From Candidatus Kapaibacterium sp. (lineage in GTDB: Bacteria; Bacteroidota; Ignavibacteria; Kapaibacteriales; UBA2268): DNA of 64,000 nucleotides. Both the position numbers and the translations under genes were made by a program. The DNA is taken from contig OY762428.1 in assembly GCA_963665665.1 (NCBI GenBank), forward strand, positions 128,001 through 192,000, written 5' to 3'. Below the pieces are notes generated by a model. That model worked only from the letters and a program-made list of their open reading frames with translations, was not told the DNA's origin and searched no databases. Shown in pieces: positions 1 to 29,757 of the stretch. Positions within the stretch are counted from its first letter, which is position 1. Each line of letters begins with the position of its first letter.

Positions 1-525
1 GGGCGCAAGGTCAATTTCTCCGATCAGGTTTTCAATCTGCATAATCTGCTCCTCGATCTCCCTGCCGCGTTTGCTGTAATATTTCAGGTTCCTGAGCAGG
101 TTGTCCGAAGCGCCGAGAACAATTTTTTTTGCCAGTTCCATCCGTTTTTTCTTGTTTTTATAATGCAACACCTGGCGCACCAGCAGGTATCCGCTGATAA
201 GTTTCTTCTTACATACGTAGCTGCCGTGGTAAAAGCCGTAGCGGTTAAAAAAATGGATATTAATATCGTTCGCGGAGCAGAACTCCAGGAAGCGGGTATT
301 GAACGAGGCCTCGGCCATGATATAGAAATTGGAAATATCATGTACCGGAACAACCTTTTTCCGGACGCTGTCGGCAAAGGGCTGGTCGCTGTCAATCGAT
401 AGCAGAATTTCTTCCTGAAGCTGAAAATCTTCTTCGGGCGGAACTTCGGCGAAGGGATGAAAAAAGACTGTATTGTCCTTTCGCATCAGTTTTCCGGGCG
501 TAAAAATATAGAGATTTTTCTTCAT
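1..525 (-). CDS. cas1: CRISPR-associated endonuclease Cas1 (type I-B-like), runs off the left window edge
   Basis: Manual translation from ATG at 525: MKKNLYIFTPGKLMRKDNTVFF...KVVPVHDISNFYIMAEASFNTRFLEFCSANDINIHFFNRYGFYHGSY...LVRQVLHY, a typical I-B Cas1 N-terminus. Directly downstream of cas4. Absent from the ORF track because there is no stop inside the window. Confidence 0.93.
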   Translation of the reverse strand, partial: MKKNLYIFTPGKLMRKDNTVFFHPFAEVPPEEDFQLQEEILLSIDSDQPFADSVRKKVVPVHDISNFYIMAEASFNTRFLEFCSANDINIHFFNRYGFYHGSYVCKKKLISGYLLVRQVLHYKNKKKRMELAKKIVLGASDNLLRNLKYYSKRGREIEEQIMQIENLIGEIDLAP

Positions 526-537
526 AAGCGCAATAAG

Positions 538-1053
538 TTAAATGAAACATAGCTCGTAGTAGGCGCATTTTTTGCAAACGCCGGTATTCTTTGGCAGCGC
601 GTCGGGCAGCCCGGCATTTTTCACATCCTCAACGCCTTTCAGAATATTCATCAGTTCGGGAATATCCTCGTCGGCAAGCGTGATTTTATTTTTTTTCTTC
701 AATTCAGGATAGTTCAATTCGCCGGTAAAATCACCAATGCCCTTAGTTTTGAAATACCAGATATAATACCTGAGCTGCCAGCCGTGGGCATCTTCCATGC
801 GGTCGGATTTTTTCACCTCGTGGATAATTTTTTTATCTAAGTCCAACCAGTCAACTTTGACTTTGTCAATCAGGAATTCTTTCTTTTTCCGCATATAATG
901 CGAGCTGTGCAAAAGGTTGCCAAGCGCGACGTTGTCGTGTTCGGCCTCGCAGTTGATATACTTTGCTGAATACCAAAGCTTCCGCTTACAGACAAAGAAA
1001 TAATTAATTTCAGTGCCTGTAGCGGAAAGCTGTAAATATAGTTCTTCGTTCAT
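538..1053 (-). CDS. cas4: CRISPR-associated exonuclease Cas4
   Basis: TGTEINYFFVCKRKLWY, RecB-like D...EVKKS, QLRYY, C-terminal CKKCAYYELC Fe-S cysteines. Confidence 0.96.
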   Translation of the reverse strand: MNEELYLQLSATGTEINYFFVCKRKLWYSAKYINCEAEHDNVALGNLLHSSHYMRKKKEFLIDKVKVDWLDLDKKIIHEVKKSDRMEDAHGWQLRYYIWYFKTKGIGDFTGELNYPELKKKNKITLADEDIPELMNILKGVEDVKNAGLPDALPKNTGVCKKCAYYELCFI

Positions 1054-3335
1054 AAGCTACTAAATTTGTTTTTCGTAATCGAAAGAGGCATATTAATGCC
1101 AATTTCATATTGATAAATATCATTATTCAAAATCAATATTGGTTCAACTTCACTACCAATTTGAATTTTTTGCAGATGGCATAAGCCATTTTTTAAAAGT
1201 TTTTCAATTTGATATAGAGGCAACTCGATTGAATGCTCAATTTTCCATGAGTTAAAATCATTGTAAGAATAGAAGAAATAATTATCTGGTTTGCATATAT
1301 AAATTGATTCTTGAGGCGGAATATCCCTGCTTTTCCAATCAAGATTTTCAAATCCTTCTTTATCAATTTGATTTACAGGATTAATTAGCCAATTATTTTT
1401 AAACATTTCTTTAAGAGTTCTGGCATTTTCTATTGATTTAACATTCTTCTCCTTATTGGTGTTATAAATAGTATTCAATAATTCGACAAGTTTATCAGGA
1501 TTGTATTTTTGCAATTTCAAAAGTTCTTTAGTTTTAGTTAATTCAATAACTGGTTCCCAATTTTTCTCTTTTCTTTGATAAGTTCCATAGGGAGCCGGGT
1601 ATATTTTGTTATCTTTTAAAGGAATTAAAACAAATAAATCACCGATTTTATCATTCTCAAACCTGCATAACCTTCCAGCCCTTTGTGTTAATCTGTCAAT
1701 TGGACATATTTCACTTATCATTATTTCAGCGCTGATATTAATACTCATTTCTCCGATCTGAGTCATAATAGCAATTCCTTGGGCATCATTTCTTTTCCAT
1801 GCTTCTTTACCGAGTTTTGAAATTAATTCATCTTCTTTTTTCTTCTTGTCCGGCTCGGTAAAACGGCTGTGGTATAGAATTGGTTTTACGCCCCTTGCTT
1901 CAAAATAGTCGTAATATTTACGAGCTGAATCAACTGTATTCGCATAAATTATTGCCACTCCTTTTTCAATACACTTGTCCAAAATATCTGAGATTTCGTC
2001 AATATAAGTATATTCGACAATTGATTTGACTTCGAACCGATCTCTATCCGAATCAGATTTATCCTCGTAAATCTGTGGTACATCGTATCCGATTTTTCTG
2101 TATTCTTCAATAACACATTCAGGAAGTGAGGCGCTCATAAGTAAAACGGGGACATTCCAAACTTTTAAAGCTCTGAGCAAGACCAATATATTTTCCTGTA
2201 CAAATTCATCATAGAAATCAGCTTCGTCAATAACAAGACAGGAATTAGCCATATTGAACGTAATATGGTGATGATCCTCTCGGCTCAATGTCAGAGCAGT
2301 AAGCAGATGATCTATTGTGCAAACAGTTGTAGTTGTTTCCAATAATCTTGCAAACTCATGGATAGACTTTGCATCTTCCTTGCGAATTTTATTGTTTTCA
2401 ATATCATCTTGAAATTTATTAAACCATGCGCTTGAATGATACAGTCCCGTTTCCGATAAAGATTCAGTTACGCTGATTGATAATGCTGTTGAAGTAAATC
2501 GGGTAGGCATAGCAATTATTAACCTGTCTGCCCGGCCATTTTGAATTTGTTTCTTTGCCCAAAGAAGTGAAGCGTCTGTTTTTCCTGCTCCTGTTGGTGC
2601 TCTTATAAGCAATAAATCAGAGTCCCATTTTTCATTAACCAGCGTTTGGACTCCTCTTTTATTTTCGAAAGGAAATTCATATACAAATTTTTTAAAATCA
2701 GGAAGCAAACAACCCTCTTCTTTCGCACTGGCTCTTCTGTCTGAAAGTTGCAACAAACTTCGTAAAGCAGCGGTTTCATATTGAACCTTTACTATCCGAT
2801 CAAAAGCATCCAAATCAAAGCATTCCGAATTTTTATTACTTTTAAGATCAAAATATTTCCAGTATTTTATTGCATCTTCATCTATCCACCGGTGTTGATG
2901 TTTTCTGCTTAGTTTTGAATGATGTGCAGCAATAGCAACAAGAACCGATAGTGGCAATTTTTCAATTTGTAATCTTTTAAGGCTTGCAATTTCATGCCTG
3001 ACTTTAGCATTACGAATATTCTTGCCAGCATCATCGCCAACATCTTTTTTAAAATTATCAAAATTCCCTTCATTACATTTCTTCCAAATTTTGTAATGTT
3101 GGTAATCTTTCTGACAGGCTGTTTGCCACTTGGGAGTTTTCTTTCCTTCATCATGATACTTACAAACGAATTCTAATCTTTTTTCAAGTGATTCCCCAGT
3201 TCTTTTATTATACTTACTGAAAGTATTTTGCCTGATTTTCTGAATAATTTTGGCCTCAGATATTACATTGGCAACATGTTCTTCCAATGTAATACCCGAG
3301 GGTTTTGCCAAAAATATTTTTTCTTTTTTAATCAC
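1050..3335 (-). CDS. cas3: CRISPR-associated HD nuclease/helicase Cas3
   Basis: N-terminal LAK..TLEEH and HDEGK HD domain, AAHH, Walker A APTGAGKT, DEAD-like IDEAD, SAS, YHSRF, QRAGR. Likely GTG start at 3335, overlapping the cas7 3' end (ORF track starts at 3353). Confidence 0.96.
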   Translation of the reverse strand: MIKKEKIFLAKPSGITLEEHVANVISEAKIIQKIRQNTFSKYNKRTGESLEKRLEFVCKYHDEGKKTPKWQTACQKDYQHYKIWKKCNEGNFDNFKKDVGDDAGKNIRNAKVRHEIASLKRLQIEKLPLSVLVAIAAHHSKLSRKHQHRWIDEDAIKYWKYFDLKSNKNSECFDLDAFDRIVKVQYETAALRSLLQLSDRRASAKEEGCLLPDFKKFVYEFPFENKRGVQTLVNEKWDSDLLLIRAPTGAGKTDASLLWAKKQIQNGRADRLIIAMPTRFTSTALSISVTESLSETGLYHSSAWFNKFQDDIENNKIRKEDAKSIHEFARLLETTTTVCTIDHLLTALTLSREDHHHITFNMANSCLVIDEADFYDEFVQENILVLLRALKVWNVPVLLMSASLPECVIEEYRKIGYDVPQIYEDKSDSDRDRFEVKSIVEYTYIDEISDILDKCIEKGVAIIYANTVDSARKYYDYFEARGVKPILYHSRFTEPDKKKKEDELISKLGKEAWKRNDAQGIAIMTQIGEMSINISAEIMISEICPIDRLTQRAGRLCRFENDKIGDLFVLIPLKDNKIYPAPYGTYQRKEKNWEPVIELTKTKELLKLQKYNPDKLVELLNTIYNTNKEKNVKSIENARTLKEMFKNNWLINPVNQIDKEGFENLDWKSRDIPPQESIYICKPDNYFFYSYNDFNSWKIEHSIELPLYQIEKLLKNGLCHLQKIQIGSEVEPILILNNDIYQYEIGINMPLSITKNKFSSL

Positions 3336-4245
3336 GGCCAAAAGCTTCGGCAAATGTTTTTACTTCATCACCCTCCGAAGGATCAAATAAGATATTATCT
3401 TCTAAGAATTTCATTGCTTCATCGTAAGCTTTTTGGACACTATTTTCAGTTTTATCATTTCCAATAAAATATTTTGCTCCTTGAGCATTAAGTTCAGCAA
3501 TAATATTTTGTTTTTCCTGATCGTCGGCAATAAAATATCGACTTGCTTTTCTGCCAAGTTTTTCATCAAACACAATTAATACTTCCTGTGGTTCCCCGCT
3601 TACGGCATTTCGTGCCTGGCTTGCGTAGTCATTCATATAACGGGTTGCTTCAAGATAAAGTTTTGCCCTTCGCTTTCTTTCGGAATCTTTGGCATGTTTG
3701 AAATATTTTGTACCGATATTGAAGCCTCCTTCATACTTAAATGCTTTGGAAATACTCAGTCCGGAAATATCCAGAAAGAAGTTCATGTGCATTAAATCAT
3801 ACTCCGAAAATTCCTTTGTCGCTAAGGATTGTTTTTTAGCATCTTCAGTTTCATCGAAACGAATTCTTACTAATAAATCGCGTCCTACATCGCTTGGTTT
3901 TATAGCAACAGCGGGTGTAACAGAAAGCGGCGCAGTTCTCCTTCCGGAATAATCGCCTTTAGACGGATGCATGAATCCGCCCATATCGGAGCGTAAATCC
4001 TTTTCAATTAAATTACTGACCCCATCCCCGTTTGAAACAAAAGTTTCGCCTCTATTTTCATCGAATTCATTCAGTCGGTCAATCGCTGAAAACAGAACAT
4101 GTCGTTGCATCTGACCCGATACATAAACTTTCCCGTCTGGTCTTCTTTTTATTGATGAAGCGTTGCCTAATAATTTTTCACCACCGTTAGCTATGTGGTT
4201 TTCGAAAGGTGCTAATATCGATACTAAGATTCCTTTGATTTTCAT
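3328..4245 (-). CDS. cas7: Type I (PGING-like) Cas7/Csp1 backbone subunit
   Basis: Position between cas8 and cas3. NHIANGGEKLLGNASSIK, YVSGQMQRH and DLRSDMGGFM resemble Cas7/Csp1 of Bacteroidota I-B variants. Confidence 0.88.
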   Translation of the reverse strand: MKIKGILVSILAPFENHIANGGEKLLGNASSIKRRPDGKVYVSGQMQRHVLFSAIDRLNEFDENRGETFVSNGDGVSNLIEKDLRSDMGGFMHPSKGDYSGRRTAPLSVTPAVAIKPSDVGRDLLVRIRFDETEDAKKQSLATKEFSEYDLMHMNFFLDISGLSISKAFKYEGGFNIGTKYFKHAKDSERKRRAKLYLEATRYMNDYASQARNAVSGEPQEVLIVFDEKLGRKASRYFIADDQEKQNIIAELNAQGAKYFIGNDKTENSVQKAYDEAMKFLEDNILFDPSEGDEVKTFAEAFGRD

Positions 4246-4264
4246 TTTTATACTCCAATTTTTA

Positions 4265-5737
4265 TTAATTTACAGTTTCAAAAATAATGTCATCTTCTTT
4301 AATTTCTTCTTCTTTAACTTCTTTTTCTGGCAGATTCTTTAGCCTTGAAAAAGCTATTATCAAATTTTTTGACTGTTCTAACGACAATTCTTCGCTTGCT
4401 GTTTTCTCGAAAAATAGTTCGGCTTCTTTTGGCGCCTCGCTATAAGAAAGCCTTCCTGCTCTGGTAACCGTTTGGGCAATAAGCGCAGTTCCGTCTTTTG
4501 CCGAAAAAGCGGCGCTTTCCAGTTCAATTAATGCCTTAGCTTTAGCCTCTCTGATTTTTTCAGGAGTAGCTCCATCTCCAATTTCATTCTTTGCGGCAAT
4601 ATATGCCACTCGATTAAGCCATCTGCCATAAGCCTTTGCAGATTCGATGATTTCAGGTTTGATTTTTTCCATTTTCTTAAAAAATATGTTGAACAAAATT
4701 TCTGTTTTTTCAGGATATTCGGCTCTAAAGGAAAGAAAATCTTTAAACGCCGGTCGGTTAAATAATTGCAAAAAGCGGCTTGTCATTAGGTCAAATTTTT
4801 GATACTCTGTATTATTATAGGTTCTTCTGTCCTGATTATATAACTTCGAATAATACAGACCGTCAATAATTGTTTTTAATACGCTATCCTTAGCAAGATC
4901 AATAATATAGTGATGAACGCTAAAAGGCTGCGCATCTCCATATTTAATTATATATAAGGTTGAATTCTTCAAACTTTCCAATACTGACTTTGCTAATTCA
5001 GAAGTTTCTTCTAATTTGGCAAATTCACCTATAGCGGCAATTAACCCAATACCACCAAGAATTGAACTTTTAGGAGCATTGGGAAAATTTCCATGATAAA
5101 TACTTGGTCTTTTAGGATAATATTTTTTATCTTTTTCTTCAACCTTCCCAAAATACAACTCTTTTGTGTTTTCCATGATTGTCATTTTTTTAAACAAACG
5201 AACAAAACTTATCATTTCATCAACATTTAAGTCAGGAATTATACAAAAATTATTATAATTGGGAAACGAACTCAAACATGGTTTTATAGGCGTTAGGGTT
5301 GTGACAGTTAACAAACCTCTTGTTTCGAGAGAAGCTTTACTTAATCCTCGAAAATCACTTTTTACAAAAGATAAATACTCACCAGCAATTGGCAACATAC
5401 CTTGTAATACATCTCTTTTACTATCTTTTTTTTGCTCATGAAATATTTTAATTAATTCATTAGCTTTATTCCAAATATTTACAGATTTTTTCGCAGAAGT
5501 AATGACATTGTATGCTAAAAAAATAAAATTTGGAGCATTATTTTTCTTTCGCGTGTATCTATACTGTATCTTATCCTTATTATTATAAGAATCTTTCGGT
5601 TCCATGCTAAAAAATTCCAAACAATATTCCAACTCTTTACAAATATGTTTTTTTGTAATCGCTGAAATATTTTCTAAATGATATTTGTCGCAAAGTATTG
5701 CTTGTGAATATCTACTATATACATTCTCATTCTCCAT
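4265..5737 (-). CDS. cas8: Type I (PGING-like) large subunit Cas8/Csp2
   Basis: About 490 aa between cas5 and cas7. RPSIYHGNFPNAP and FLSFRAEYP motifs, helical C-terminal domain. Likely start MENEN at 5737, overlapping the cas5 end. Confidence 0.82.
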   Translation of the reverse strand: MENENVYSRYSQAILCDKYHLENISAITKKHICKELEYCLEFFSMEPKDSYNNKDKIQYRYTRKKNNAPNFIFLAYNVITSAKKSVNIWNKANELIKIFHEQKKDSKRDVLQGMLPIAGEYLSFVKSDFRGLSKASLETRGLLTVTTLTPIKPCLSSFPNYNNFCIIPDLNVDEMISFVRLFKKMTIMENTKELYFGKVEEKDKKYYPKRPSIYHGNFPNAPKSSILGGIGLIAAIGEFAKLEETSELAKSVLESLKNSTLYIIKYGDAQPFSVHHYIIDLAKDSVLKTIIDGLYYSKLYNQDRRTYNNTEYQKFDLMTSRFLQLFNRPAFKDFLSFRAEYPEKTEILFNIFFKKMEKIKPEIIESAKAYGRWLNRVAYIAAKNEIGDGATPEKIREAKAKALIELESAAFSAKDGTALIAQTVTRAGRLSYSEAPKEAELFFEKTASEELSLEQSKNLIIAFSRLKNLPEKEVKEEEIKEDDIIFETVN

Positions 5738-6428
5738 ATTCAATCCTAGTATTAATCCAACCTTCACTGTTTCCTAAATATGTTATATTGTATTCGAATA
5801 AATGATTTTCAACTAATTCGAACAAATCAAAATCAAACCATAGTCTAAAAACAAAACTATGGTTATAATAATAATATTCTCTGTTTGTAGGTTTAGTATA
5901 ACAGAATGGATAATTTCGATGATTTTGATTAAAATATAATCCGAAATTAAAATCCTTATTTTTTTCTAATCTTCTTAGGTTCGGTATAAGTCGATAATCG
6001 AGATTTGGAGTTCCCTTAGGATGTGTATCAGAAATTTCATTATCTCCGGCTCTTCTTAAACATCTGCTCCACAGATCAATAAAAGAAAAATATTCGGGAA
6101 TTTCAACAGATTCAATTTCAAAATAATCCATAAGCAAGGGAATATAAGTTGAGCCGTGTTGATATTTTATATATGGAACTTTTTGCTTTTTTCGCAATTT
6201 TACTAAATCTTTTACAATTGCCATTCTATCTGCAATATCAATATGCCACCCTAAGATATTTTCAAACAAGCCACAAAGCATTTTTTTTGACGGGCTTTTC
6301 AAGGACTTGTAGAAAGATCCCGGTAAGTCGTTAACCATTGATAATGGAGCTAAGGGATCGATTATCAATTTCACTTTCTTTTCAGGTTTTGGTATTTTTT
6401 CCAATATAGATAAATTTATTTCTTGCAT
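5727..6428 (-). CDS. cas5: Type I (PGING-like) Cas5p
   Basis: PLAPLSMV..LPGSFYKS...PSKKMLCGLFENILGWH, C-terminal YLGNSEGW. AGGAG RBS before ATG at 6428. Confidence 0.88.
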   Translation of the reverse strand: MQEINLSILEKIPKPEKKVKLIIDPLAPLSMVNDLPGSFYKSLKSPSKKMLCGLFENILGWHIDIADRMAIVKDLVKLRKKQKVPYIKYQHGSTYIPLLMDYFEIESVEIPEYFSFIDLWSRCLRRAGDNEISDTHPKGTPNLDYRLIPNLRRLEKNKDFNFGLYFNQNHRNYPFCYTKPTNREYYYYNHSFVFRLWFDFDLFELVENHLFEYNITYLGNSEGWINTRIEYGE

Positions 6429-6436
6429 AATAACTC

Positions 6437-7093
6437 CTATAATCTTACAGCCCCGAAACCTGCCCCGGCACTCTCGCCAACGCCTACGTTGTAGGCAAAG
6501 CGGATCAGTTCGGGAGCGCCCTCGAGTATCACGGGGCACAGGTTGGCTTTGTTTTGAATATTATTGAAATTGACAATTTTTGTTTTCGCGCGCTGGTAGT
6601 CACGGTCGAATCGTATTCTAATATCGCCGCTCAGCCCGGCCAGCTTCATTTTGCTCTGCATTACTTCGGTCATTCGTTCGTCGGCTGCAGGATTATTCCA
6701 CTCCAGGTGCTCGCATCCCTTATCGGTTTTCCGGCGCACCAGGGCAGGGGAAGCCAGGTGCAGGTATTCCCTTTCCGAGAACTCGGGCCTGCTGCCGATA
6801 ATTATCTCCTGCGCGCGCATCCCGTTGAACATCGTCGGATCATCTCTTACCCCGGTGATAATGCGCTCCAATAAATCTCCCTCGTGCGCCGATATAAAGA
6901 AATTTGCGCCCTCAGGGAAGTTTAGCCCCTTCTTTGCCGGACGTGCTCCGCTCAGCCAGCTTATTGAGTAGAGCGATATGCCGTCGTGCTCTATATTCTC
7001 GCCAAGCCATTTGTGCAGCGCCCCGACCATTTTCTGTTGGTAATCGTAATGTACAAGCTCAGTGTTCCGGCTTGTTTGGAAATATAATCTCAA
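6437..7093 (-). CDS. cas6: CRISPR-associated endoribonuclease Cas6
   Basis: YDYQQKMVGALHKWLG, HDGISLYS, C-terminal G-rich loop GVGESAGAGFG. GGAGG RBS before TTG at 7093. Confidence 0.95.
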   Translation of the reverse strand: MRLYFQTSRNTELVHYDYQQKMVGALHKWLGENIEHDGISLYSISWLSGARPAKKGLNFPEGANFFISAHEGDLLERIITGVRDDPTMFNGMRAQEIIIGSRPEFSEREYLHLASPALVRRKTDKGCEHLEWNNPAADERMTEVMQSKMKLAGLSGDIRIRFDRDYQRAKTKIVNFNNIQNKANLCPVILEGAPELIRFAYNVGVGESAGAGFGAVRL

Positions 7094-7807
7094 TTGCGCC
7101 TCCAAAATTATAAATATTAGATGACTTGATATCAAAACCATGTATATCAAGGTTAGTTCAAGCCTCTGATTGCGACTTGATAATATTATATAAATAGTCA
7201 GTTAACTGATGACATCTGAATGTGATATCAATCCGGTAGCTGGATCAATTTCATCGAAAAATATTAAAATACAAGCATAAGAAAATCTCCCACAAATAAT
7301 ACCCCTCTTAAAATAAGATTTCTGCCCGATAAGCAGGAAATAAGACTATTTTTTTTCTTTTCACTGATTTTATTATTATATTATACAAAAAATAAATTAT
7401 AATTCCAATTATTTTGATATTTTTTGAAGTTAGTATTTTCTTCTGAATAAGTTTTTTTCCTGATCTTTATAAATTGAAGATTTTAAGCTAATAAATTTGA
7501 GAAATTGTCAGATAATGATAAAATATGAAATACAAAAGGAATCCAGACTGATTTTATTATTTTATTATTATTCTGAGAATTTTGAAATTCAATAGCATGA
7601 AAAAATTGTATTTTGCCATCTTAAAAACTGGGGTAAGAACTCTTGATCATTATCGATAATATTGAAGAGAATTGTCTTATATTGGATTTATGATAATGTT
7701 TACAATTATTGAATATAAAAAATATTGTTTAGAATAATGTTATATATAATTTATAATTATTTTATAAGTATATATAATATATAGAGTAATGATATTATTA
7801 CTACAGT

Positions 7808-8467
7808 CCCGAAGGGAGGGCTTTGAAGAAGAATAAGGCAACAACAGAATAAAACATCAGTACTTTGCTTCCGGACAAGGCAGCAATGAAGCAAAACATT
7901 GCTGCAATAGTGTCGACCAAGAGTTCATTATCTTCAAACATCGGTGCATCGATTTGGAACAATGCGTCATTATCTTCAACCAGGGCGGCAATGACTTTGA
8001 CCAAGGCGTCATTGACTTCGACCAAGGCGGCAATAGGTTAAACCTTTGGTACTTTGCTTCTGAACATCGGTGCATTATTCCTGACCCCTCCCAAACCCTC
8101 CCCAAAGGGGAGGGCTTTGAAGAAGAATAAGGCGGCAATGAAGCAAAACATTGCTGCAATAGTGTCGAACAAGACCTCAATACCTCTGACCCCTCCCAAA
8201 CCCTCCCCGAAGGAGAGGGCTTTGAAGAAGAATAAGGCGGCAATGGATTCGAACAAGAGTTCATTATCATCAAACATCAGTACATTGATTTGGAACAATG
8301 CGACAATAAAGCAAAACATTGCTGCAATAGCTTCAACCAAGAGTTCATTATCTTCAAACAAGGCGGCAATGACTCCGACCAAGGTAGCAATGACTCCGAC
8401 CAAGGCATCAATGGAATCAACCATTGGTGCATCGGCTTCGACCCCTCCCAAACCCTCCCCGAAGGGG
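7808..8467. repeat. 21-nt-period modular tandem array with embedded 42-nt hairpin units (left part, interrupted by IS)
   Basis: Units from 7825, e.g. GAAGCAAAACATTGCTGCAAT, AGTGTCGACCAAGAGTTCATT, ATCTTCAAACATCGGTGCATC, GACTCCGACCAAGGCATCAAT. Register is maintained through the CCCTCCCCRAAGGRGAGGG hairpins. Confidence 0.9.
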
Positions 8468-8475
8468 CATATGCG

Positions 8476-8709
8476 CTAACTTAGTGAAAATAAGTAATTC
8501 ATACTACTTTGCCTTTTTCGATGTCCTTCTTTTAGGCAATTAGAAACATCATCCCAGTTGTTAATACATTGATACAAAGTAATACCGGGACTGATGATTT
8601 TCAATAAAATATCTTTAACAAATACATTTTCACGCCATTGTGATGTACTCCTTTTATCATTCTCTTTTATTAAACCTGTAGCCCCAGGGGGAAAAACGCT
8701 CACCTTCAT
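8476..8709 (-). CDS. Possible frameshift extension or small second ORF of the IS4 element
   Basis: 77-codon +1-frame ORF overlapping the transposase end at a T5C5 run, with its stop codon inside the TIR. Confidence 0.4.
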   Translation of the reverse strand: MKVSVFPPGATGLIKENDKRSTSQWRENVFVKDILLKIISPGITLYQCINNWDDVSNCLKEGHRKRQSSMNYLFSLS

Positions 8710-9769
8710 CGATAATAGCCTGAGTAAGGAGAGCTGTGATCATCTTAGCATAAAGCCACGCTCGTGCAGAGTTTTTATCTTTTTTTGGTAAATGCCCCAA
8801 GCCAAATTGACTTTTTAGTTTTTTAAATGAAATTTCAACCTGCCATCTCATTCTATATAATTCTAAGATATTATTAGAAGATATATCATTAATCAAAGAA
8901 GTCACCAAAACAATATAATCATTAAGTCCTAAAGCTGTAGAACTGATTGTCTGTTGTTTTCTAGCAAAATTCTTTTTTGCTTTCTTTCTGGATAACTCAG
9001 CTTGCTCCTTGCTTTTTTTGATAGCACATATACGTACAGGAATCTTTTTATTTTTTGAGGAGGAGGAGGAAATATAAAATATTTTGTCAAATATTTGATC
9101 TAACTTTAAACTTTTTAATTCTTTAATAATATCAACTTTATCATTTTTACTATTATATAGTGTAAAACCTTTATGCTTATATCTGACAACAAAATTTGCT
9201 TTCTTTCCGAGAATTTCTGAAATACCCTTATAACTGCAATATGCTCTGTCAATTAAAAAAAGATCAGAAGAGTTAATTTTGAAATTAGATATAGACTCAC
9301 CGACTTTTGGGCTGGTAATAATAAATTCGTCACACTTGAGGTTGAACAGATTATGGCTGTAATGAAGTCTCCAGTCAGTACCTGTTGACCCCGGCTCAGT
9401 AACAACAGACGCATCGATACATCTTACATTGAAATCCGACAGCCATTCTGGGGAATCTAATGATATCCCCCTATTATGAATCAATCCTAATGCAATCCAG
9501 CGAAGCCAATCAGCAGACGTCCTCATTTTTTTTAATAACGCAACATCTGATATATCTATATTTCTTTCATATTTAAGCTTAGTAGCAACCACCCTCATAG
9601 AATGCCCCGTTGCTACATGCATAAGTATTGCTCGAAGTTGCTCAGAAGGTGAATCAAATGCCCTGCGACGTTGGAAAGCCTGGAGTTCTTTAGCCTTTAA
9701 TTCCCATCCCAAAGGAAGTAAGGTTGTAACTACATCCCATTCTTCTATATGCTTGTTGTACTTTTCCAT
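8657..9769 (-). CDS. IS4-family DDE transposase
   Basis: IDAS, DRAY and YRMRWQVEISFKKLKS (YREK signature) motifs. Enclosed by TIRs. Confidence 0.93.
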   Translation of the reverse strand: MEKYNKHIEEWDVVTTLLPLGWELKAKELQAFQRRRAFDSPSEQLRAILMHVATGHSMRVVATKLKYERNIDISDVALLKKMRTSADWLRWIALGLIHNRGISLDSPEWLSDFNVRCIDASVVTEPGSTGTDWRLHYSHNLFNLKCDEFIITSPKVGESISNFKINSSDLFLIDRAYCSYKGISEILGKKANFVVRYKHKGFTLYNSKNDKVDIIKELKSLKLDQIFDKIFYISSSSSKNKKIPVRICAIKKSKEQAELSRKKAKKNFARKQQTISSTALGLNDYIVLVTSLINDISSNNILELYRMRWQVEISFKKLKSQFGLGHLPKKDKNSARAWLYAKMITALLTQAIIDEGERFSPWGYRFNKRE

Positions 9770-9823
9770 TTACAAATATAAAAAAATTATATATAAAAAT
9801 CAAACACTAAGTTAGCGCTTATG

Positions 9824-9955
9824 CCCCGAAGGGGAGGGCTTTGAAGTAAAACAAGGCGGCAATAAAGCAAAATATTGCTGCAATAGTGTCGACCATCGGT
9901 GCATTGCCTTCGACTCATCCTACCTCCCCCCGACCACCTCCTTCGGAAGGAGGGA
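9824..9955. repeat. Continuation of the 21-nt modular array after the IS
   Basis: GAAGTAAAACAAGGCGGCAAT, AAAGCAAAATATTGCTGCAAT, AGTGTCGACCATCGGTGCATT, then a CCTCCTTCGGAAGGAGG hairpin. Confidence 0.85.
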
Positions 9956-10340
9956 AAAAGCTCCGTAGGATCGGAATTTTTGTAGATAATATTTACATAA
10001 CGAATATTAAAAGCTCCGCAGGAGCGACACAATCTTTTGCCAATGTCGCCCCTAAGGGGCTGTTGTTCATCCCGGGATCGATTTTCTACAAAAATGTCGC
10101 GGCTACGCCGCTTTCGGGATGGCTGATTTTATACTCCTTCCCAAGCCCCGCTTGGGAAGGCAAATACCACTGGGAAAAAAAGAAAACATCACATCTAAGC
10201 AGGGGCTTAGATGCGAGTATAAGGGCGGGGTGGATTCTTCGGTCGCAAGCTCCGGAAGCCTGCCCCTGCCTGCACCGATTTATCGGTGACGTGTCGGGGA
10301 AAGACAACATTAACTGTCCTCCGAAGGACGGGGAATGAAA
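9956..10340. repeat. Cluster of REP-like palindromic elements
   Basis: AGCTCCGTAGGA../CTCCGCAGGAGCGAC, TTCCCAAGCCCCGCTTGGGAA, GGATTCTTCGGTCGCAAGCTCC. Near-identical copies at about 27495-27590, 28347-28425 and 39060-39370. Confidence 0.85.
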
Positions 10341-10515
10341 ATTCTGCAATTATTCTTTTCAAAACAGAATAATATCATTTTATCATAGGGATACAAAATA
10401 TTAATTTCCTGCAAAACAAGTTTGAAAAATGATTTATATTTTGATTATGCGGATGATTTTATTATTTTGTTGATAAATGCTTTTGGGATTTAATACATTT
10501 TTCCAGGGAGGAATA

Positions 10516-11835
10516 ATGGCTCGTTCAATCTTATTTTTTGTTTTATTTTCAATATTTTTTAATCCTGTATTTGCCGAAAAGATCTGCCGCAAACATAACG
10601 TAATTACTGATGGATTCATTGAAATGGGTGAAAATTTTGGTAATAAATTGCAAGTGGTAAGTACCTCGTTCAACACCAAAGACGATGAAAGAAACCCTCA
10701 GCCATTCAAATACGGCGCTGCTATGTACTTCATTTCAGACCGCGTAGGCTCTCATGCAAGAAATAATAATGATGAAAGATATGAAGAAGCCTGGTATTCT
10801 GAAATATCATATACTGAAGATTCTCTGATATTTAATCCCGTTCTTTCCGGCCCCGGCAACATTGGTTCGCTGGTAAAGGGGCATGAAGGGCCATTTGGTA
10901 TTTCTCAGGACGGATCGGTTTGCTACTTAATCAGGTATACAAGGGGACGTACAAAAAAATCGTATGATATTTTTAAAAGTTCTTATGATACAAAAAAAGA
11001 TAAATGGTGTAAACCATCACATCTTGGAATTATTATTAATTCGGATATGTATGAATTAACTCCGGGGATAAATAGTGATAAAACCCGACTGTATTTTAGT
11101 TCCAACCGAAGAGGGCCAAACAGCCGCGGAGTTCATTATTTCGGAGAAAATTATGATATCTGGTATTCAGATTATTACCCGCAGACGCGTACATGGGGGG
11201 AAGCAGTTAATATAACAGATATTAATTCTGACGATGAAGATAGTTGTCCAAATATTTCTTTTGACGGAAAAACAATTGTTTTTGCATCTAAGGGCCTTGA
11301 ACCCAATTATGGCGGTTCGGATATTTATATAAGCAGGTTCGATGATTCAACAGGCAAATGGTGCAAACCAATTAATTTAGGCCCAAAAATAAACTCAGGA
11401 TCGGACGAAAACTTTCCATCACTGCTATATAACGGTGATATAATAATGTTCACCTCCAATGATGACGACAGGGACGGAGCAAAAGGAAAAACAGATATTT
11501 ATTATGCATTCCTTCCCCGCGATTGCGAGCTGTGCGGCGATAAAAACTTTTCCGAAGTTACTCCGGTTTCATTTACGAAATCGACAAAAATCCAGGTGGA
11601 AGTGCCGGATGCTTGTTTCGGAGAGTTGAATATTATTGATGAATCAGGCGAAGTCGTTAACAGGATTCACGCCGGTGAATTTAAAAAGGGCATGAATGAA
11701 TTTGAATGGAAGGGAAACACAACAAAGAAGAAATACCTTAGGAACGGAATCTATAAATCTGTTCTTACCGTTGAAATCAATAACGAATTTTATACCGAAG
11801 AAAGAATTGCCATTATCAGCGGCAGAAGAAGATAA
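10516..11835 (+). CDS. Secreted PD40 (TolB-like beta-propeller) repeat protein with C-terminal FlgD-like Ig domain
   Basis: Signal peptide, repeated P.IS.DG..LYF.S.R and DIY.S motifs, C-terminal EFEWKG.....LRNGIY. Confidence 0.8.
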   Translation: MARSILFFVLFSIFFNPVFAEKICRKHNVITDGFIEMGENFGNKLQVVSTSFNTKDDERNPQPFKYGAAMYFISDRVGSHARNNNDERYEEAWYSEISYTEDSLIFNPVLSGPGNIGSLVKGHEGPFGISQDGSVCYLIRYTRGRTKKSYDIFKSSYDTKKDKWCKPSHLGIIINSDMYELTPGINSDKTRLYFSSNRRGPNSRGVHYFGENYDIWYSDYYPQTRTWGEAVNITDINSDDEDSCPNISFDGKTIVFASKGLEPNYGGSDIYISRFDDSTGKWCKPINLGPKINSGSDENFPSLLYNGDIIMFTSNDDDRDGAKGKTDIYYAFLPRDCELCGDKNFSEVTPVSFTKSTKIQVEVPDACFGELNIIDESGEVVNRIHAGEFKKGMNEFEWKGNTTKKKYLRNGIYKSVLTVEINNEFYTEERIAIISGRRR

Positions 11836-26329: not shown

Positions 26330-27346
26330 ATGAAAAAATTTGAACTTCTCGGAAAAAAACCAACGCGCCACGGATTTGGCGAAGCTCTGGCCGAACTTGG
26401 CGAAAAGCATGACAACGTGGTTGTTCTTGGCGGTGATATCACCGGTTCTGTAATGACTTCATACTTCAAAGAGAAATTCCCCGAAAGATTCTTTTCCTGC
26501 GGTATAGCCGAGCAGAATGCAACAACTATAGCAACTGGCCTGGCTTTATCAGGGAAGATAGCTTTCTTTTCCAGCTACAGCGCTTTCGCGGCGTTCAGGA
26601 ACTCCGATCAGCTCCGCATTTCTGTTTGCTATAATAATGCAAATGTAAAAATCGGAGGGGGGCATTCAGGTATTACAGTCGGACCTGACGGCGCTACCCA
26701 CCAATCGCTTGAAGAAATTTCATTTCTCAGGGCATTACCAAACATGACTCTTGTTGTTCCCTGCGACTTCCAGGAAGCCAAGAAAGCAACATGGGCGACA
26801 GGAGAGATGAACGGCCCTGCATACATCCGTTTCGGACGTTCGGCAATCCCCATGTTTACAACCGGGGAAACGCCATTTGAAATAGGTAAAGCAGAAGTTT
26901 TCCGCGAAGGAAATGACCTTGCTATCGTAGCCTGCGGCCTGATGGTTTGGGAAGCACTTATGGCAGCCGAAGAACTTGAAAAGAAACACGGCATACAGGC
27001 AAGAGTAATTAATAACCACACTATCAAGCCTATCGACGTGGAAACAATTACCACAGCCGCGAGGGAATGCGGCGCTATCGTTACTGCCGAGGAACACCAG
27101 GTTCACGGCGGGCTTGGTGCGGCTGTTTCAGAAGTTGTTGTTAAAAATCAGCCTGTTCCGATGGAATTTATCGGAGTTCCTGATCGCTTCGGCGAGAGTG
27201 GCGAACCCGACGAACTTCAGCAGGCATTCGGCCTGAACTGGAAATCTGTTTATGCCGCAGCCCTGAAAGCCATCGACAGGAAGAAAAACGGAAGCAGCGG
27301 TTTCCGTAAACTCACCGAAATGGAAGAGTATTCCGAAGGAATGTAA
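26330..27346 (+). CDS. Transketolase, C-terminal (pyrimidine-binding/C) subunit
   Basis: TRHGFGEAL, GIAEQN, GPDGATHQ, YIRFGR, TIKPID, EEHQ..GGLG, FGESG. Confidence 0.95.
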   Translation: MKKFELLGKKPTRHGFGEALAELGEKHDNVVVLGGDITGSVMTSYFKEKFPERFFSCGIAEQNATTIATGLALSGKIAFFSSYSAFAAFRNSDQLRISVCYNNANVKIGGGHSGITVGPDGATHQSLEEISFLRALPNMTLVVPCDFQEAKKATWATGEMNGPAYIRFGRSAIPMFTTGETPFEIGKAEVFREGNDLAIVACGLMVWEALMAAEELEKKHGIQARVINNHTIKPIDVETITTAARECGAIVTAEEHQVHGGLGAAVSEVVVKNQPVPMEFIGVPDRFGESGEPDELQQAFGLNWKSVYAAALKAIDRKKNGSSGFRKLTEMEEYSEGM

Positions 27347-27372
27347 TCCATATAGAGATATTTTATATATAT

Positions 27373-27400
27373 AATCCCTGCCATTCCGGCGGGGATTTTT
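27373..27400 (+). terminator. Intrinsic terminator
   Basis: AATCCCTGCC-ATTCC-GGCGGGGATT followed by a T-run, after the transketolase C subunit. Confidence 0.8.
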
Positions 27401-27494
27401 GTTATTCAAACCTCCGGAAGGTTTGTGTTTTATATCGCCGGTAATATTATTGGCAAAGTTCTTGAACAGGATACTTCCGAAGGTTTTGGCATTC

Positions 27495-28430
27495 AGCTCC
27501 GTAGGAGCGGAATTTTTGTAGATAATGTTTACATTGTGATTATTAAAAGCTCCGTAGGAGCGACAGAGTCTTTTGGCCATGTCGCCCCGAAAAAATTCCC
27601 CTCGTTGAGGGGTGGCGAGCGCAGCGAGTTCCCGACACGTCGGGACAGGCTGGGGTGGTTTCTTTTTCTTAGTCTTCGGGACGTTGCGTCTTTATCCACG
27701 AGCTAAAGCACGTGGCTATTGATTTTGACGATTATAAGGCTGGAAGGTCATTCTGAGCGCCAGCGAAGGATCCATTCTTCATAAATTATCCGCAAGGAAG
27801 ATGGATTCTTCGGTCTCAAGCTCCGTCAGAATGACGGATGGGAATGTCCCCCGCTGGCGGGGGTGTCCGAAGGACGGGGGTGGACTTCCGGAAAATTCCC
27901 CTCCCTTGGAGGGGATTAAAGGGGTGGTTTCTTTTTCTTAGCCTCCGCACCTTGCACATTTATCCACGAGCTAAAGCACGTGGCTATTGAACTTGACGAT
28001 GGTAAAACTGCATGTCATTCTGAGCGCCAGCGAAGAATCCATTCTTAATGCATTCCCTGCAAACGAAAATGGATTCTTCGGTCGCAAGCTCCTTCAGAAT
28101 GACGGATGGGAATGTCCCCCGCTGTCGCCGACGTGTCGGGAAAGGACGGGGGTGGACTTCCGGAAAAATTCCCCTCCTAATGTAGGAGGGAATTACAGGG
28201 GTGGTTTGCTTTCTTTGCCTTCGCACCTTGCACATTTATCCACGAGCTAAAGCACGTGGCTATTGAATTTGACGATTATAAAGCTGGGATGTCATTCTGA
28301 GCGCCAGCGAAGAATCCATTCTTATTACACTATCTGCAAACAAAGATGGATTCTTCGGTCGCAAGCTCCGGAAGCCTGCACCTGCCTGCACCGATTTATC
28401 GGTGACGTGTCGGGGAATGACAACATAATA
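27495..28430. repeat. BIME-like mosaic: three ~270-bp tandem units of REP-like palindromes
   Basis: Anchor TTTATCCACGAGCTAAAGCACGTGGCTATTGA at 27691, 27959 and 28235. Each is followed by GTCATTCTGAGCGCCAGCGAAG.ATCC...GGATTCTTCG..GAATGAC and preceded by a CCCCTC..GAGGGG hairpin. Confidence 0.92.
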
Positions 28431-28445
28431 CCTCCTTCTCCGGCT

Positions 28446-28657
28446 CTTACTCCCCGTTATTCCACCCCAATGAACAGGCCGCCGGCCTTAATTCCCCAAC
28501 CTGTGGTCTCAATGAATCGAATAATTTCCTTAATTCAACGCTGTTTTGAACCAGAATCCTGATGTTTGGGCTAATTGCTTGGATTGCAGGGCTTTAAACT
28601 GCCTTGGCCGGAGGTATTGAACTACTGTTTGGCCTTAATGTAGTGAAATTTGGCCTC
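28446..28657. repeat. Degenerate 21-nt-period array (CTYAAT-like anchor, variable remainder)
   Basis: Units at 28466, 28487, 28508, 28529, 28571, 28634 and 28655 begin CCCAAT/CTTAAT/CTCAAT/CTTAAT/CTAATT/CTTAAT/CTCATT. Confidence 0.65.
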
Positions 28658-28918
28658 ATTGAACACTTGGTTGGCTTTACTGAACACTTGGTTGATCTTA
28701 CTGAACACTTGGTTAATCTTACTGAACACTTGGTTGATCTTACTGAACACTTGGTTGATCTTACTGAACACTTGGTTGACCTTACTGAACACTTGGTTGA
28801 TCTTACTGAACACTTGGTTGACCTTACTGAACACTTGGTTGGCTTTACTGAACACTTGGTTGACCTTACTGAACACTTGGTTGATCTTACTGAACACTTG
28901 GTTGATCTTACTGAACAT
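28658..28918. repeat. Homogeneous 21-bp tandem repeat, about 12.5 copies of ACTGAACACTTGGTTGA(T/C)CTT
   Basis: Directly visible. Translates as (TEHLVDL)n, (LLNTWLI)n or (FSKINQV)n. Confidence 0.97.
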
Positions 28919-28925
28919 GTTCTTT

Positions 28926-29370
28926 GCCTCCGACCAAGAGTTCAATGACTTCGACCAAGGCAGCAATAACTTCGAACAAGGCATCAATAACTTCGAACAA
29001 GGCAGCAATATCATCAAACATCGGTGCAATAGCTTCAAACAAGAGTTCATTATCATCAAACATCGGTGCATCGATTTGGAACAAGACAGCAATGAAGCAA
29101 AACATTGCTGCAATAGCTTAGAACATCGGTGCAATGACTCCGACCAAGGCATCAATAATTCCGACCAAGGCGTCAATGAAGCAAAACATTGGTTCAATAG
29201 CTTCAACCAAGAGTTCATTATCTTCAAACAAGGCGGCAATGACTCCGACCAAGGCGTCAATAAAGCAAAACATTGCTGCAATAGTGTCGAACAAGGCATC
29301 ATTAAAATCAAACATCAGTGCAATGGCGTCGACCATTGTTACATTGATTTCAAACATCGGTGCATTGCCG
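28926..29370. repeat. 21-nt modular array, same unit vocabulary as 7825-9905
   Basis: 21 consecutive units, consensus N6-RA(A/C)CA-W-N5-CA(A/T)T. Confidence 0.92.
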
Positions 29371-29651
29371 CTGCCCCTTCCTACCTCCCCCCGGCCACCT
29401 CCTTCGGAAGAAGGAGGAGTTAATTCTATGATATTTAATTTCTTATCCCCTCCTAAAGTAGGAGGGGAATACAGGGGTGGTTTGCTTTCTTTGCTTCTGG
29501 TCAGTGCGCCATTATCTTCAAACATCGGTGCATTGCCTCTGCCCCTTCCTACCTCCCCCCGGCCACCTCCTTCGGAAGAAGGAGGAGTTAATTCTATGAT
29601 ATTTAATTTCTTATCCCCTCCTAAAGTAGGAGGGGAATACAGGGGTGGTTT
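29349..29651. repeat. Direct repeat (~133 bp, period 168 bp) of hairpin-rich unit
   Basis: CAAACATCGGTGCATTGCC..CCTCCTTCGGAAGAAGG..CCCCTCCTAAAGTAGGAGGGG..GGTGGTTT at 29351 and 29519. Confidence 0.92.
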
Positions 29652-29757
29652 TTTTATTCGCAAGAAAATAGAAAGAATTTTATGCATGGAAAAATTATCG
29701 ACAATTATCGCATTTTTTAACGATAAGTAATAATACTTTTATAATACAGATGGAATA

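Follow-up and report, generated by a model that had tools for sequence, protein, structure and literature searches.

In CRISPR arrays, direct repeats of 23-50 nt that are identical to each other alternate with unique spacers of about the same length, and REP/BIME elements and REPINs are mobilised by RAYT (Y1) transposases; to our knowledge, REP elements do not carry long 21-nt arrays. In the report of Rehm et al. (2015; PMC4692102), the GGGNATC heptanucleotide repeats of Xanthomonas and Nostoc are described as repeats of a dispersed simple-sequence type. Klein et al. (2015; PMC4596501) describe the BrickBuilt element of Porphyromonas gingivalis, whose 23-nt units combine conserved with variable sites; it has a leader and a tail and is present in 19 intergenic, species-restricted copies making up 0.44% of the genome.

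We analysed a 64,000-nt stretch of a Candidatus Kapaibacterium genome (hereafter the window), in which the original prediction had placed one array of about 28 units of exactly 21 nt at 7808-9955 (array 1), next to the cas operon. The exact period was borne out by autocorrelation; identity at lag 21 in array 1 was 0.49, whereas 1000 shuffles averaged 0.255 ± 0.017 and never exceeded 0.31; in the region 28926-29370 the identity was 0.62. At lags 7 and 14 identity was below background, which ruled out a heptanucleotide substructure of the 21-nt unit. The proposed consensus N6-RAMCA-W-N5-CAWT also stood, with 39 plus-strand matches in the window, of which 7894-9891 holds 18 and 28932-29520 holds 21, and 3 in the opposite orientation, and the vocabulary of 28926-29370 was confirmed to equal that of array 1.

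A 1356-bp insertion sequence (IS) of the IS4 type (8468-9823, minus strand) splits the interval 7808-9955, which therefore does not form a single array. This IS carries a DDE transposase ORF (8657-9769, minus strand, PF01609) and imperfect 19-bp terminal inverted repeats, and its 11-bp target duplication (8457-8467 and 9824-9834) sits within the loop of a GC hairpin element of array 1; the IS is foreign to the 21-nt repeat family. With the IS and one copy of the target duplication taken out, array 1 was found to run in a single register. The predicted 21-nt units are real, but their number had to be revised, since the restored array has 37 slots of 21 nt, 18 of which are strict units; it also holds four hairpin elements of about three slots each, one of them truncated. 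The left part (7804-8467, minus strand) comprises slots 1-32, with hairpin elements at 7804-7845 (the truncated one), 8077-8139 and 8182-8244; at 8434-8467 the fourth element is cut after its first half. In the minus-strand frame of this part, (I/N)xx(L/M)(V/F)xx is interrupted by a single stop, in slot 12. The right part (9835-9955, minus strand) comprises slots 33-37, which contain what remains of the hairpin element cut by the IS, together with three units and the beginning of the large hairpin module hp1. Over the whole array the minus frame contains two stops. Array 1 has no partner array, and the 700 nt on its cas6 side are unique DNA; it is a broken, IS-disrupted orphan copy of a dispersed family. 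Assemblies of four read runs over 6400-11400 were uninformative, the contigs all breaking within arrays; in two of these runs (X1 and X3), which probably derive from the source sample, the IS was present as its own 1356-nt contig, and in two runs from another study (X4 and X5) the cas6 side was without cover.

Across the genome, 83 arrays with at least five strict matches were found, and in 79 of them all matches share one register. Array intervals numbered 135 and totalled 52,563 nt, or 1.0% of the genome. A conserved flank (CR) is common to 41 loci, so that at least 41 loci exist, and the family is put at about 41-55. Copies of the hairpins lie within 400 nt of arrays in 97/116 cases for hp2, 47/55 for hp1 and 62/72 for the small hairpin; because they cluster in this way, all three were assigned to the family. 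Comparison of the flanks of the 41 loci showed no common gene, and the flank DNA that is shared consists of other repeat modules. The replication-strand bias of the loci (26/41, p = 0.12, versus 56% for long ORFs) was not significant. A full-text literature search turned up no description of such 21-nt arrays, in line with the view that the repeat system is undescribed; a large, apparently undescribed repeat family amounting to about 1% of a complete genome is documented here.

The proposed tie to the cas operon found no support. The genome has one cas1 locus, near which only one of the at least 41 family loci lies, and with 83 arrays set against this single locus the cas adjacency of array 1 looks coincidental. 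Since array 1 is one broken copy of a dispersed family, it is probably unrelated to CRISPR, and the earlier statement that it is not a CRISPR is upheld. Like CRISPR arrays, array 1 consists of short repeated units adjoining cas genes. CRISPR arrays, however, have spacers and are consistently associated with cas genes, whereas the 21-nt units are contiguous, themselves variable and without spacers; neither identical spaced repeats nor a cas association was found for the 21-nt arrays. A false lead is removed in this way, as array 1 is not a new cas-associated repeat system.

A complete locus was delimited at 28440-29660. It runs from the conserved flank through a homogeneous 21-nt array, a palindromic junction and an inverted variable array to GC-rich hairpin modules, and its boundary with unique DNA at about 29660 is sharp. 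The flank (28440-28640) shows no indels across about 230 nt in 41 copies, and it is equally conserved on both sides of a candidate stop codon. The homogeneous array (28622-28918, minus strand) holds 12.3 copies of TGAACACTTGGTTGAYCTTAC and corresponds to candidate ORF2, which reads on the minus strand MFSKINQVFS...NEAKFHYIKAKQ up to its stop (98 aa). The two inverted arrays meet at the palindromic junction GAACATGTTC (28913-28922), which presents an ATG on either strand. The variable array (28926-29370, minus strand) has 21 slots with all 20 strict matches in a single register, periods of 42 and 84 nt, and one minus-frame stop. Two copies of the hairpin module follow (29371-29660) with a period of 168 nt, equal to 8 slots, and a short array between them; each module is made of hp1 (CCTCCTTCGGAAGAAGGAGG), hp2 (TCCCCTCCTAAAGTAGGAGGGGA) and GGGGTGGTTT.

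Neither the 63-nt hairpin elements nor the 168-nt duplications of the module break the 21-nt register, and higher-order periods of 42, 84 and 168 nt were detected. A genome-wide census gave 2068 units, 768 of them distinct, and when paralogous arrays were aligned, 1431 of the 1752 mismatches fell at unit positions 0, 1, 4, 6, 8, 15 and 16; variation between copies is concentrated on these seven, which come back in numerous combinations. The original prediction had also proposed that left and right halves of the units are re-paired combinatorially. This was upheld in that the common left halves each pair with 6-17 different right halves, but the pairing is not independent (mutual information 2.61 bits versus entropies of 5.36 and 4.68). 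The explanation that we favour, with about even confidence, is a mosaic minisatellite family like BrickBuilt, on which a heptad coding frame has left its imprint and in which recombination in register generates the diversity. Expansion, contraction and reshuffling of the arrays would come about through unequal recombination in register and gene conversion, both among units and among loci.

The conserved positions had been said to fit no codon frame, which proved incorrect, as the boxes are whole minus-strand codons (AWT, WTG and KTY). In coiled-coil heptads, hydrophobic residues occupy positions a and d. The minus-strand frame of the arrays reads as (I/N)xx(L/M)(V/F)xx heptads with Ile/Asn at a and Leu/Met at d, the spacing of the boxes matching the 3/4-residue spacing of these positions; further hydrophobic residues occur at e and g, and the variable residues sit at the exposed b and f positions. 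AlphaFold2 predicted one long helix for this frame with a mean pLDDT of 92.7, as against 43 for the plus-strand ORF. Between paralogues, pN/pS was lowest in the minus-strand frame '-0' (0.50, with 0.90-3.89 in the other five), and this frame contained 104 stops versus 215 ± 8.5 in column shuffles. Such evidence marks the imprint of a coding frame that belongs to the favoured explanation; it also speaks for live one-strand two-gene cassettes, a reading that we regard as possible but doubtful. ORF1, reading the variable array, would then be predicted to encode a long α-helix of (I/N)xx(L/M)(V/F)xx heptads that are both acidic and hydrophobic, ORF2 would read the homogeneous inverted array as basic K(I/V/A)NQVFS heptads, and recombination would give rise to many coiled-coil variants. 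It is also consistent with this reading that in the main subfamily GGAGG is located 8 nt 5′ of the ORF2 ATG, that in 30 of 35 junction-bearing loci ORF2 starts at the junction and stays open as far as its stop in the flank, that in every subfamily the stop of ORF1 and the start of ORF2 overlap, and that one minus-frame ORF of the window is annotated by NCBI.

Against live cassettes, recent mutations gave no sign of purifying selection. Among 78 single-step rare variants, a sample of modest size in a 55-copy family in which selection per copy may be weak, the synonymous, nonsynonymous and stop changes numbered 15/61/2 versus 20/56/2 under neutrality, with all frames alike, whereas purifying selection with omega 0.5 would predict about 33 synonymous changes. 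The pN/pS value of 0.50 between paralogues is a reflection of the standing vocabulary. In ATT, TTG and GCC the synonymous sites are no less invariant than other sites. The codon-usage score of the minus frame (-0.003 versus 0.10 ± 0.03 in 940 long ORFs) falls below the first percentile of long ORFs. ORF1 is open from the hairpin module to the junction in only about 10 of 35 loci, 13 loci share a stop immediately before a hairpin element, and in type B loci, which have an A+T-rich spacer of roughly 560 bp, the second array lacks a start codon. Heptads are, moreover, equally plausible on both strands, as complementary codons predict.

Searches of protein collections also count against the cassettes. 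A search of 5.8 billion proteins with ORF1 returned 2 matches, both from its own genome, and no relatives outside it; of ten window ORFs tried, one was found in the protein collection. No Pfam family was matched by the main-array ORFs, and two ORFs reading the constant array gave weak, low-complexity coiled-coil matches only. The language-model recognition score was 1029, below the level of 2300 that is reached by 91% of known families, and look-alikes in the atlas belonged to no named family (best score 0.80). Prediction of an ORF1-ORF2 complex, which scored 0.01 in a run without controls, speaks neither for nor against the cassettes. The minus frame resembles coiled-coil heptad proteins in its Ile/Asn at a, its Leu/Met at d and its modelled single long helix, but differs from them in having no Pfam match or homologues outside the genome, in recent mutations without purifying selection, and in its many broken copies.

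A DNA search of 40 relatives gave a single, marginal match. In a genome of the same order and another family (G033), the two-array architecture was present, stop/start overlap included, with an otherwise different unit sequence; its QEVIASL array keeps Leu with CTA, where our genome uses TTG. This recurrence argues for a selected function and favours the cassettes. Even so, the version in which combinatorially variable acidic ORF1 proteins and constant basic ORF2 proteins are translationally coupled, with the architecture kept at order level, seems unlikely to us. If it were true, recombination in register among about 55 loci would give the genome its own means of producing diverse coiled coils, which might serve in recognition or exclusion, and ORF2 would read an inverted copy of the ORF1 repeat through complementary codons. 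A pattern scan of genome contigs returned at least 74 stretches, and among the matches listed most were homogeneous 21-nt repeats with no relation to the family beyond their fit to the pattern. A Saprospiraceae array (L021) was rejected as a relative, as its boxes fit, yet other frames are open; a Kapaibacterium array (L081 in G041) shares 17/21 unit positions but is single-copy there and was rejected as a family copy. Two pattern scans of metagenome contigs gave no matches, and one of viral contigs gave 8 stretches. In the draft assemblies of relatives the family has probably gone unseen, for the matches there sit at contig ends.

Twenty-one bp equal two helical turns, and the strict 21-bp period with its conserved boxes is consistent with functional non-coding DNA, in which a box pair per 21 bp would form phased sites for a polymerising or nucleoid-organising protein. 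We consider this improbable. Rare variants at box positions numbered 12 of 78 versus 22 expected, which hints at some constraint, and the boxes ATTG..N5..WTG recur in arrays of four other genomes (G018, G033, G133 and G236) with the remainder of the unit differing; these matches were picked by the box pattern, however, so the similarity is partly circular. The boxes lie 9 and 12 nt apart, in the whole-codon 3/4 pattern and not at 10-11 nt, which suits codons better than helical turns. An iteron- or centromere-like array would be expected beside the gene of its cognate protein (Rep or ParB/ParR type), but no candidate gene for a binding protein consistently adjoins the arrays, whose flanks are unique or made of other repeats.

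Slightly less probable again is a functional RNA, by which a transcript of both arrays would act as a long imperfect hairpin or be cut into unit-length guide-like RNAs. The minus strand of 28640-29200 was predicted to fold as one long imperfect hairpin of -155.5 kcal/mol, versus -131.9 ± 6.7 in 100 shuffles (z = -3.5), but its arms are merely about 62% complementary, and orphan arrays such as array 1 near cas lack a partner arm. Terminator-like hairpins lie 3′ of the variable array on the plus strand, and one hp2 variant, judged by eye and uncounted, appears to exchange a closing A-T pair for C-G. The suggested guide-RNA arrays found no support, and no Rfam family was assigned; the whole window gave no match at the gathering score, 27300-29800 gave just two chance-level matches and one type B locus gave none. 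Promoter-like sites showed no excess over shuffles.

The least probable reading, which we think very improbable, is a hypervariable protein under diversifying selection in another frame, either a plus-strand frame of the form (D/N)(F/S)(D/N/E/K)QG(S/I/V/G)N or a long minus-strand frame through both arrays. It would fit the pN/pS values of 3.07 and 3.89 and, for the plus frame, the ATG at the junction. The plus frame, however, shows no stop avoidance (82 versus 93) and has the worst codon score (-0.148) together with the pLDDT of 43; most hairpin elements close it with TAA, and in type B loci a TGA lies near its start. The long minus frame has the strongest stop avoidance of all (70 versus 257), with ORFs of 226-328 aa spanning both arrays in many loci, but it has Pro and Trp in every heptad, and that it stays open is a consequence of which residues the neighbouring frame admits.

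The mosaic minisatellite family remains our preferred explanation. The unit vocabulary would derive from a minus-strand heptad-repeat coding sequence of coiled-coil type, from whose coding constraint the present copies have probably been freed, acting as neutral or selfish DNA, and the position of array 1 beside cas would be due to chance. Counting against decay are the unit length divisible by three, the four largely open frames and the GGAGG before the junction ATG, all of which would be unexpected of junk, and also the ORF2 frame kept open in most junction loci and the architecture shared with G033. With its clear heptad-codon imprint and a two-array inverted design that recurs in another family of the order, the repeat family is well suited to studying how a coding repeat may become a selfish minisatellite, or a minisatellite a coding repeat. 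Gene callers need to be used with care on such arrays, since the four open frames can yield hypothetical proteins on either strand.

Among known systems, REP/BIME elements and REPINs are likewise many-copy intergenic mosaics of small GC-rich palindromic modules in variable order. On either side of the only Y1-transposase gene of the genome (1821817-1822161) lies another palindromic family (AGCTCCGTAGGAGCG...), with none of hp1, hp2 or the small hairpin within 900 nt, and the array-locus hairpins are 84-86% confined to array loci; a REP/REPIN-RAYT system was ruled out, as the RAYT belongs to another palindrome family. GGGNATC repeats, as described by Rehm et al. (PMC4692102), also form genome-wide, mainly intergenic tandem-repeat families of varying copy number. 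Their period is 7, unlike the period of 21 found here with identity at lags 7 and 14 under background, and our units are not G-rich and have no quadruplex motif.

BrickBuilt comes closest. Like a MITE of this type, the family has dispersed copies with a spacer-less tandem array of conserved and variable sites, distinct conserved flanks (CR in 41 loci on one side, the hairpin module on the other), no internal transposase or recognisable gene, and a restricted host range. Its mobility as a MITE is putative, because terminal inverted repeats and target duplications could not be delimited: only an inverted match of 7 nt (CCACCCC/GGGGTGG) was seen, and the element edges are mosaic and unlike between loci. 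By comparison with the BrickBuilt report (PMC4596501), both are dispersed, intergenic and species-restricted in hosts of the FCB group, with a spacer-less tandem core of units of about 20 nt, in which some sites are conserved and others not, a conserved 'leader' and a conserved 'tail' around the array, many partial copies, predicted long stem-loops, and hypothetical genes called inside at times by annotation pipelines. Unlike BrickBuilt, with 19 copies and 0.44%, our family has about 41-55 loci that take up 1% of the genome, a second, homogeneous inverted array abutting the variable one at a palindromic junction, and GC-rich hairpin modules that keep the register within the arrays and next to them. 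Terminal inverted repeats of an IS-like kind were not found in it, nor were target duplications, and one of its copies is bisected by an IS, of which no counterpart was seen in BrickBuilt. Its unit is 21 nt instead of 23, which is why the frames stay open. It may be seen as a lineage-restricted, BrickBuilt-like family, with 21-nt arrays of a kind apparently undescribed.

Lag-21 self-identity supported the presence of 21-nt units of the form N6-RAMCA-W-N5-CAWT in array 1, the repeat array near cas6 at 7808-9955; the value was 0.49 (0.62 for 28926-29370), and 1000 shuffles of array 1 averaged 0.255 ± 0.017 and never exceeded 0.31. Identity at lags 7 and 14 was below background, indicating that the 21-nt unit is not made of heptanucleotides, and Tandem Repeats Finder returned periods of 21, 42, 84 and 168 nt. 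The strict motif matched the plus strand of the window 39 times, 18 in 7894-9891 and 21 in 28932-29520, and the opposite orientation three times. The original prediction had treated 7808-9955 as a single array; it was found to be interrupted at 8468-9823 by a 1356-bp IS4-type insertion sequence with 19-bp imperfect inverted ends, an 11-bp target duplication and a minus-strand DDE transposase ORF (8657-9769, PF01609). When this element and one target duplication were removed, 18 of 18 motif matches shared one register, and the restored array comprised 37 slots, in which 18 units fit the motif strictly and several more loosely, besides four hairpin elements and the beginning of a bigger hairpin module. 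Seven full-length copies of the insertion sequence were present in the genome, six of them inside GC-rich hairpins with a target ending in GGGG and five of these six in array loci, which suggests that target choice is directed by structure or by the G-run. As to the proposed shuffling of half-units, common left halves did pair with 6-17 partners, but the halves were not independent of each other (mutual information 2.61 bits).

The source genome is complete (5.46 Mb, 38.6% G+C). The strict motif formed 83 clusters of at least five matches in it, with a single register throughout in 79 of the 83; that such arrays are phased DNA-binding sites is a minor alternative, which we consider improbable. 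A looser scan recovered 135 intervals with five units or more, 52,563 nt in total or 1.0% of the genome, and a 16-nt anchor inside the conserved flank of the arrays was common to 41 loci. The suggested link with cas was thus unsupported, as these 83 clusters and 41 anchored loci stand against a single cas1 locus in the genome. Since the family is dispersed and the 700-nt gap between array 1 and cas6 is unique sequence, the position of array 1 beside the cas genes is regarded as a coincidence; the guide-RNA reading of the arrays found no support either. The neighbouring type I cas operon (window 1-7150, minus strand) comprises Cas6 (6437-7150, minus), a 500-aa ORF, Cas3 with an HD domain (1050-3353, minus) and cas1 at the left edge, and no CRISPR array was found inside the 64-kb window.

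The variable array at 28926-29370 proved to be part of a complete type A locus (window 28440-29660), which is made up of five parts. First comes the conserved flank (CR), about 230 nt long, and then a homogeneous array with the unit TGAACACTTGGTTGAYCTTAC (12.3 copies in the window locus). A palindromic junction (GAACATGTTC) separates it from the variable array, which runs in the opposite orientation, and at least one hairpin module completes the locus; terminator-like hairpins are found there on the plus strand, and the border with unique DNA is sharp. The homogeneous array falls into several subfamilies, and its unit and the variable unit are inverted relatives, 13 of 21 positions being equal in a by-eye comparison of the sequences. 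Type B loci (genome 1025572-1026994 and 12 further loci) carry between their two arrays a conserved spacer, about 560 bp long and about 85% A+T (13 spacers aligned), flanked by the variable array and by an NEAEQAS-type array without a start codon; the spacer gave no Rfam match, and promoter-like sites were not in excess in it. The GC-rich hairpins hp1, hp2 and the small hairpin are members of the repeat family, an array being no more than 400 nt away from 47 of 55, 97 of 116 and 62 of 72 of them, respectively. With a length of exactly 63 nt the small hairpin element fills 3 slots, and the module duplicated at 29349-29651 repeats every 168 nt, equal to 8 slots, so the register survives both; a longer hairpin variant moves it by 16-17 nt. 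A fold z of -3.5 speaks for a long hairpin or processed RNA, a minor reading that we hold to be decidedly improbable. Adjoining the complete locus, window 27652-28370 contains a 268-bp mosaic module repeated 2.6 times in tandem. Each copy combines a GGGGTGGTTT piece with a CCACGAGCTAAAGCACGTGG hairpin and the palindrome GTCATTCTGAGCG...GAAGAATCC (197 genome-wide motif matches), and the module was found again on the downstream side of most array loci. Array 1 is a variable array left as an orphan, without homogeneous partner or CR and truncated at one end; split by the insertion sequence, carrying two stops and having no partner array, it is a dead copy.

The claim that the conserved positions fit no codon frame was wrong. 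In the unit-aligned frame the boxes are whole minus-strand codons, AWT (Ile/Asn), WTG (Leu/Met) and KTY (Val/Phe), spaced by 3/4 residues as heptad positions a and d; this frame of the variable array is called ORF1. Four of the six frames were largely open, with 66, 81, 101 and 153 stops in 10,563 codons (more than 1000 in the other two). When paralogous variable arrays were aligned (89 pairs), 1431 of 1752 mismatches fell at unit positions 0, 1, 4, 6, 8, 15 and 16; three of these seven are synonymous third positions in the minus frame, and the remaining ones switch Ala/Asp, Val/Phe and Glu/Gly. The pN/pS was 0.50 in the minus frame and 0.90, 0.98, 1.38, 3.07 and 3.89 in the other five, and minus-frame stops numbered 104 versus 215 ± 8.5 in column shuffles. 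AlphaFold2 without alignment modelled a 128-residue minus-frame ORF as a single helix (mean pLDDT 92.7); the plus-strand ORF of the window locus had a pLDDT of 43. On the same strand as ORF1, the homogeneous array carries a candidate ORF2, MFSKINQVFS...NEAKFHYIKAKQ*, whose candidate ATG lies inside the junction with GGAGG 8 nt upstream in the main subfamily and whose start overlaps the stop of the first frame. Among 35 junction loci, ORF2 ran to its usual stop in 26 and read through to the next in four; three were without the junction ATG and two were broken.

Neutrality was assessed with rare unit variants one base from a common unit (78 variable-array, 32 homogeneous-array). Their synonymous, non-synonymous and stop counts fitted neutral expectation in all frames; the minus frame gave 15/61/2 versus a neutral 20/56/2, whereas an omega of 0.5 would predict about 33 synonymous changes. 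Between paralogues, synonymous sites of ATT, TTG and GCC were as invariant as any other site, and the low minus-frame pN/pS is therefore standing vocabulary, not ongoing selection. Codon-usage scores were -0.003 for the best frame and -0.148 for the plus frame; 940 long ORFs scored 0.10 ± 0.03 (first percentile 0.016). Only about 10 of 35 loci had an uninterrupted minus frame between hairpin module and junction, and in 13 loci a common stop stood immediately upstream of a hairpin element. Conservation of CR was equal on both sides of the ORF2 stop, without indels and without a three-base rhythm. One of ten window ORFs looked up was present in the protein collection; the search with ORF1 gave two matches, both from this genome, and that with ORF2 a single match in another genome with different flanks. 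No Pfam family was found for the variable-array ORFs, and the language-model recognition score was low. Complementary codons of an amphipathic heptad yield another amphipathic heptad, so plausible peptides from either strand carry no weight as evidence; that other frames encode hypervariable proteins is a minor and highly improbable reading. The 21-nt arrays now evolve without detectable coding constraint.

A DNA search for the locus gave a marginal match in one of 40 related genomes, to a 21-nt array in G018. There (locus L119, 1216-1672), a 21-nt array of IDVLNTL type adjoins a 42-nt array, and 144-codon ORFs are open on both strands, a further instance of arrays of this sort being open in the two directions. 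The six-frame search with ORF1 found matches, mostly weak, in 7 of 300 genomes of the class. The box pattern ATTG-N5-WTG-N9, repeated three times, occurred 505 times in this genome (control 0) and 1-8 times apiece in 4 of 300 others. G033, from another family of the same order, carries several 21-nt arrays, some at contig ends. Two of its loci (L101 1380-1780, L103 1440-1720) share the design seen here: two inverted arrays abut at a near-palindromic, ATG-bearing junction, where the stop of a PIDAMTT or PIVAMTK frame overlaps the start of a MSIESPRSR IETPRSR... frame; the units are unlike those of this genome except for ATTG..N5..ATG. This conserved architecture, together with the ATG/GGAGG at the junction, keeps alive the main rival explanation, that some copies are live ORF1-ORF2 cassettes, which we judge rather unlikely. 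The first G033 frame has proline in nearly all heptads, a misfit with a coiled coil, and a third G033 array (QEVIASL) has an internal stop and CTA for Leu where this genome has TTG. Two metagenome scans with the unit vocabulary of this genome gave no matches; draft assemblies probably hide arrays of this kind.

The arrays are dispersed, in register, built from a small vocabulary in many recombined orders and associated with hairpin modules of their own, and we put the chance that they are a mosaic minisatellite family at about even. In-register unequal recombination and gene conversion would account for the shuffling and the higher-order periods, and the codon-aligned boxes, low pN/pS and helix model may be traces left by an ancestral coding sequence of heptad repeats. 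The repeat feature is genuine and is classed with minisatellite-bearing mosaic or MITE-like repeats; the family appears to be undescribed in the literature.

Among known systems, REP/RAYT was rejected, as the only clear Y1 transposase of the genome is flanked by a different palindrome family. That family, AGCTCCGTAGGAGCG... / ...GCCCCTACGGGGC (52 motif hits), lies on both sides of the Y1 (IS200/RAYT-like) gene at genome 1821400-1822370, likely forming a REP-RAYT pair with it, and has further copies in the window, at about 9955-10130 and 27500-27590. The heptanucleotide repeat of Xanthomonas/Nostoc type, as outlined in PMC4692102, was rejected on the lag-7 and lag-14 values. The nearest described element is BrickBuilt of Porphyromonas gingivalis, which, as described in PMC4596501, consists of spacer-less 23-nt repeats, some of whose sites are conserved and others variable, with leader and tail segments. 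Its 19 copies, partly incomplete, make up 0.44% of the genome; the element is confined to one species and lies in intergenic DNA, with hypothetical genes occasionally called inside and long stem-loops predicted. Compared with BrickBuilt as described there, no terminal inverted repeats or target duplications could be recognised here at the 41 anchored loci compared, the unit is 21 nt, whereby frames are kept open, and the present family has a second, inverted array, in-register hairpin modules and a higher copy number.
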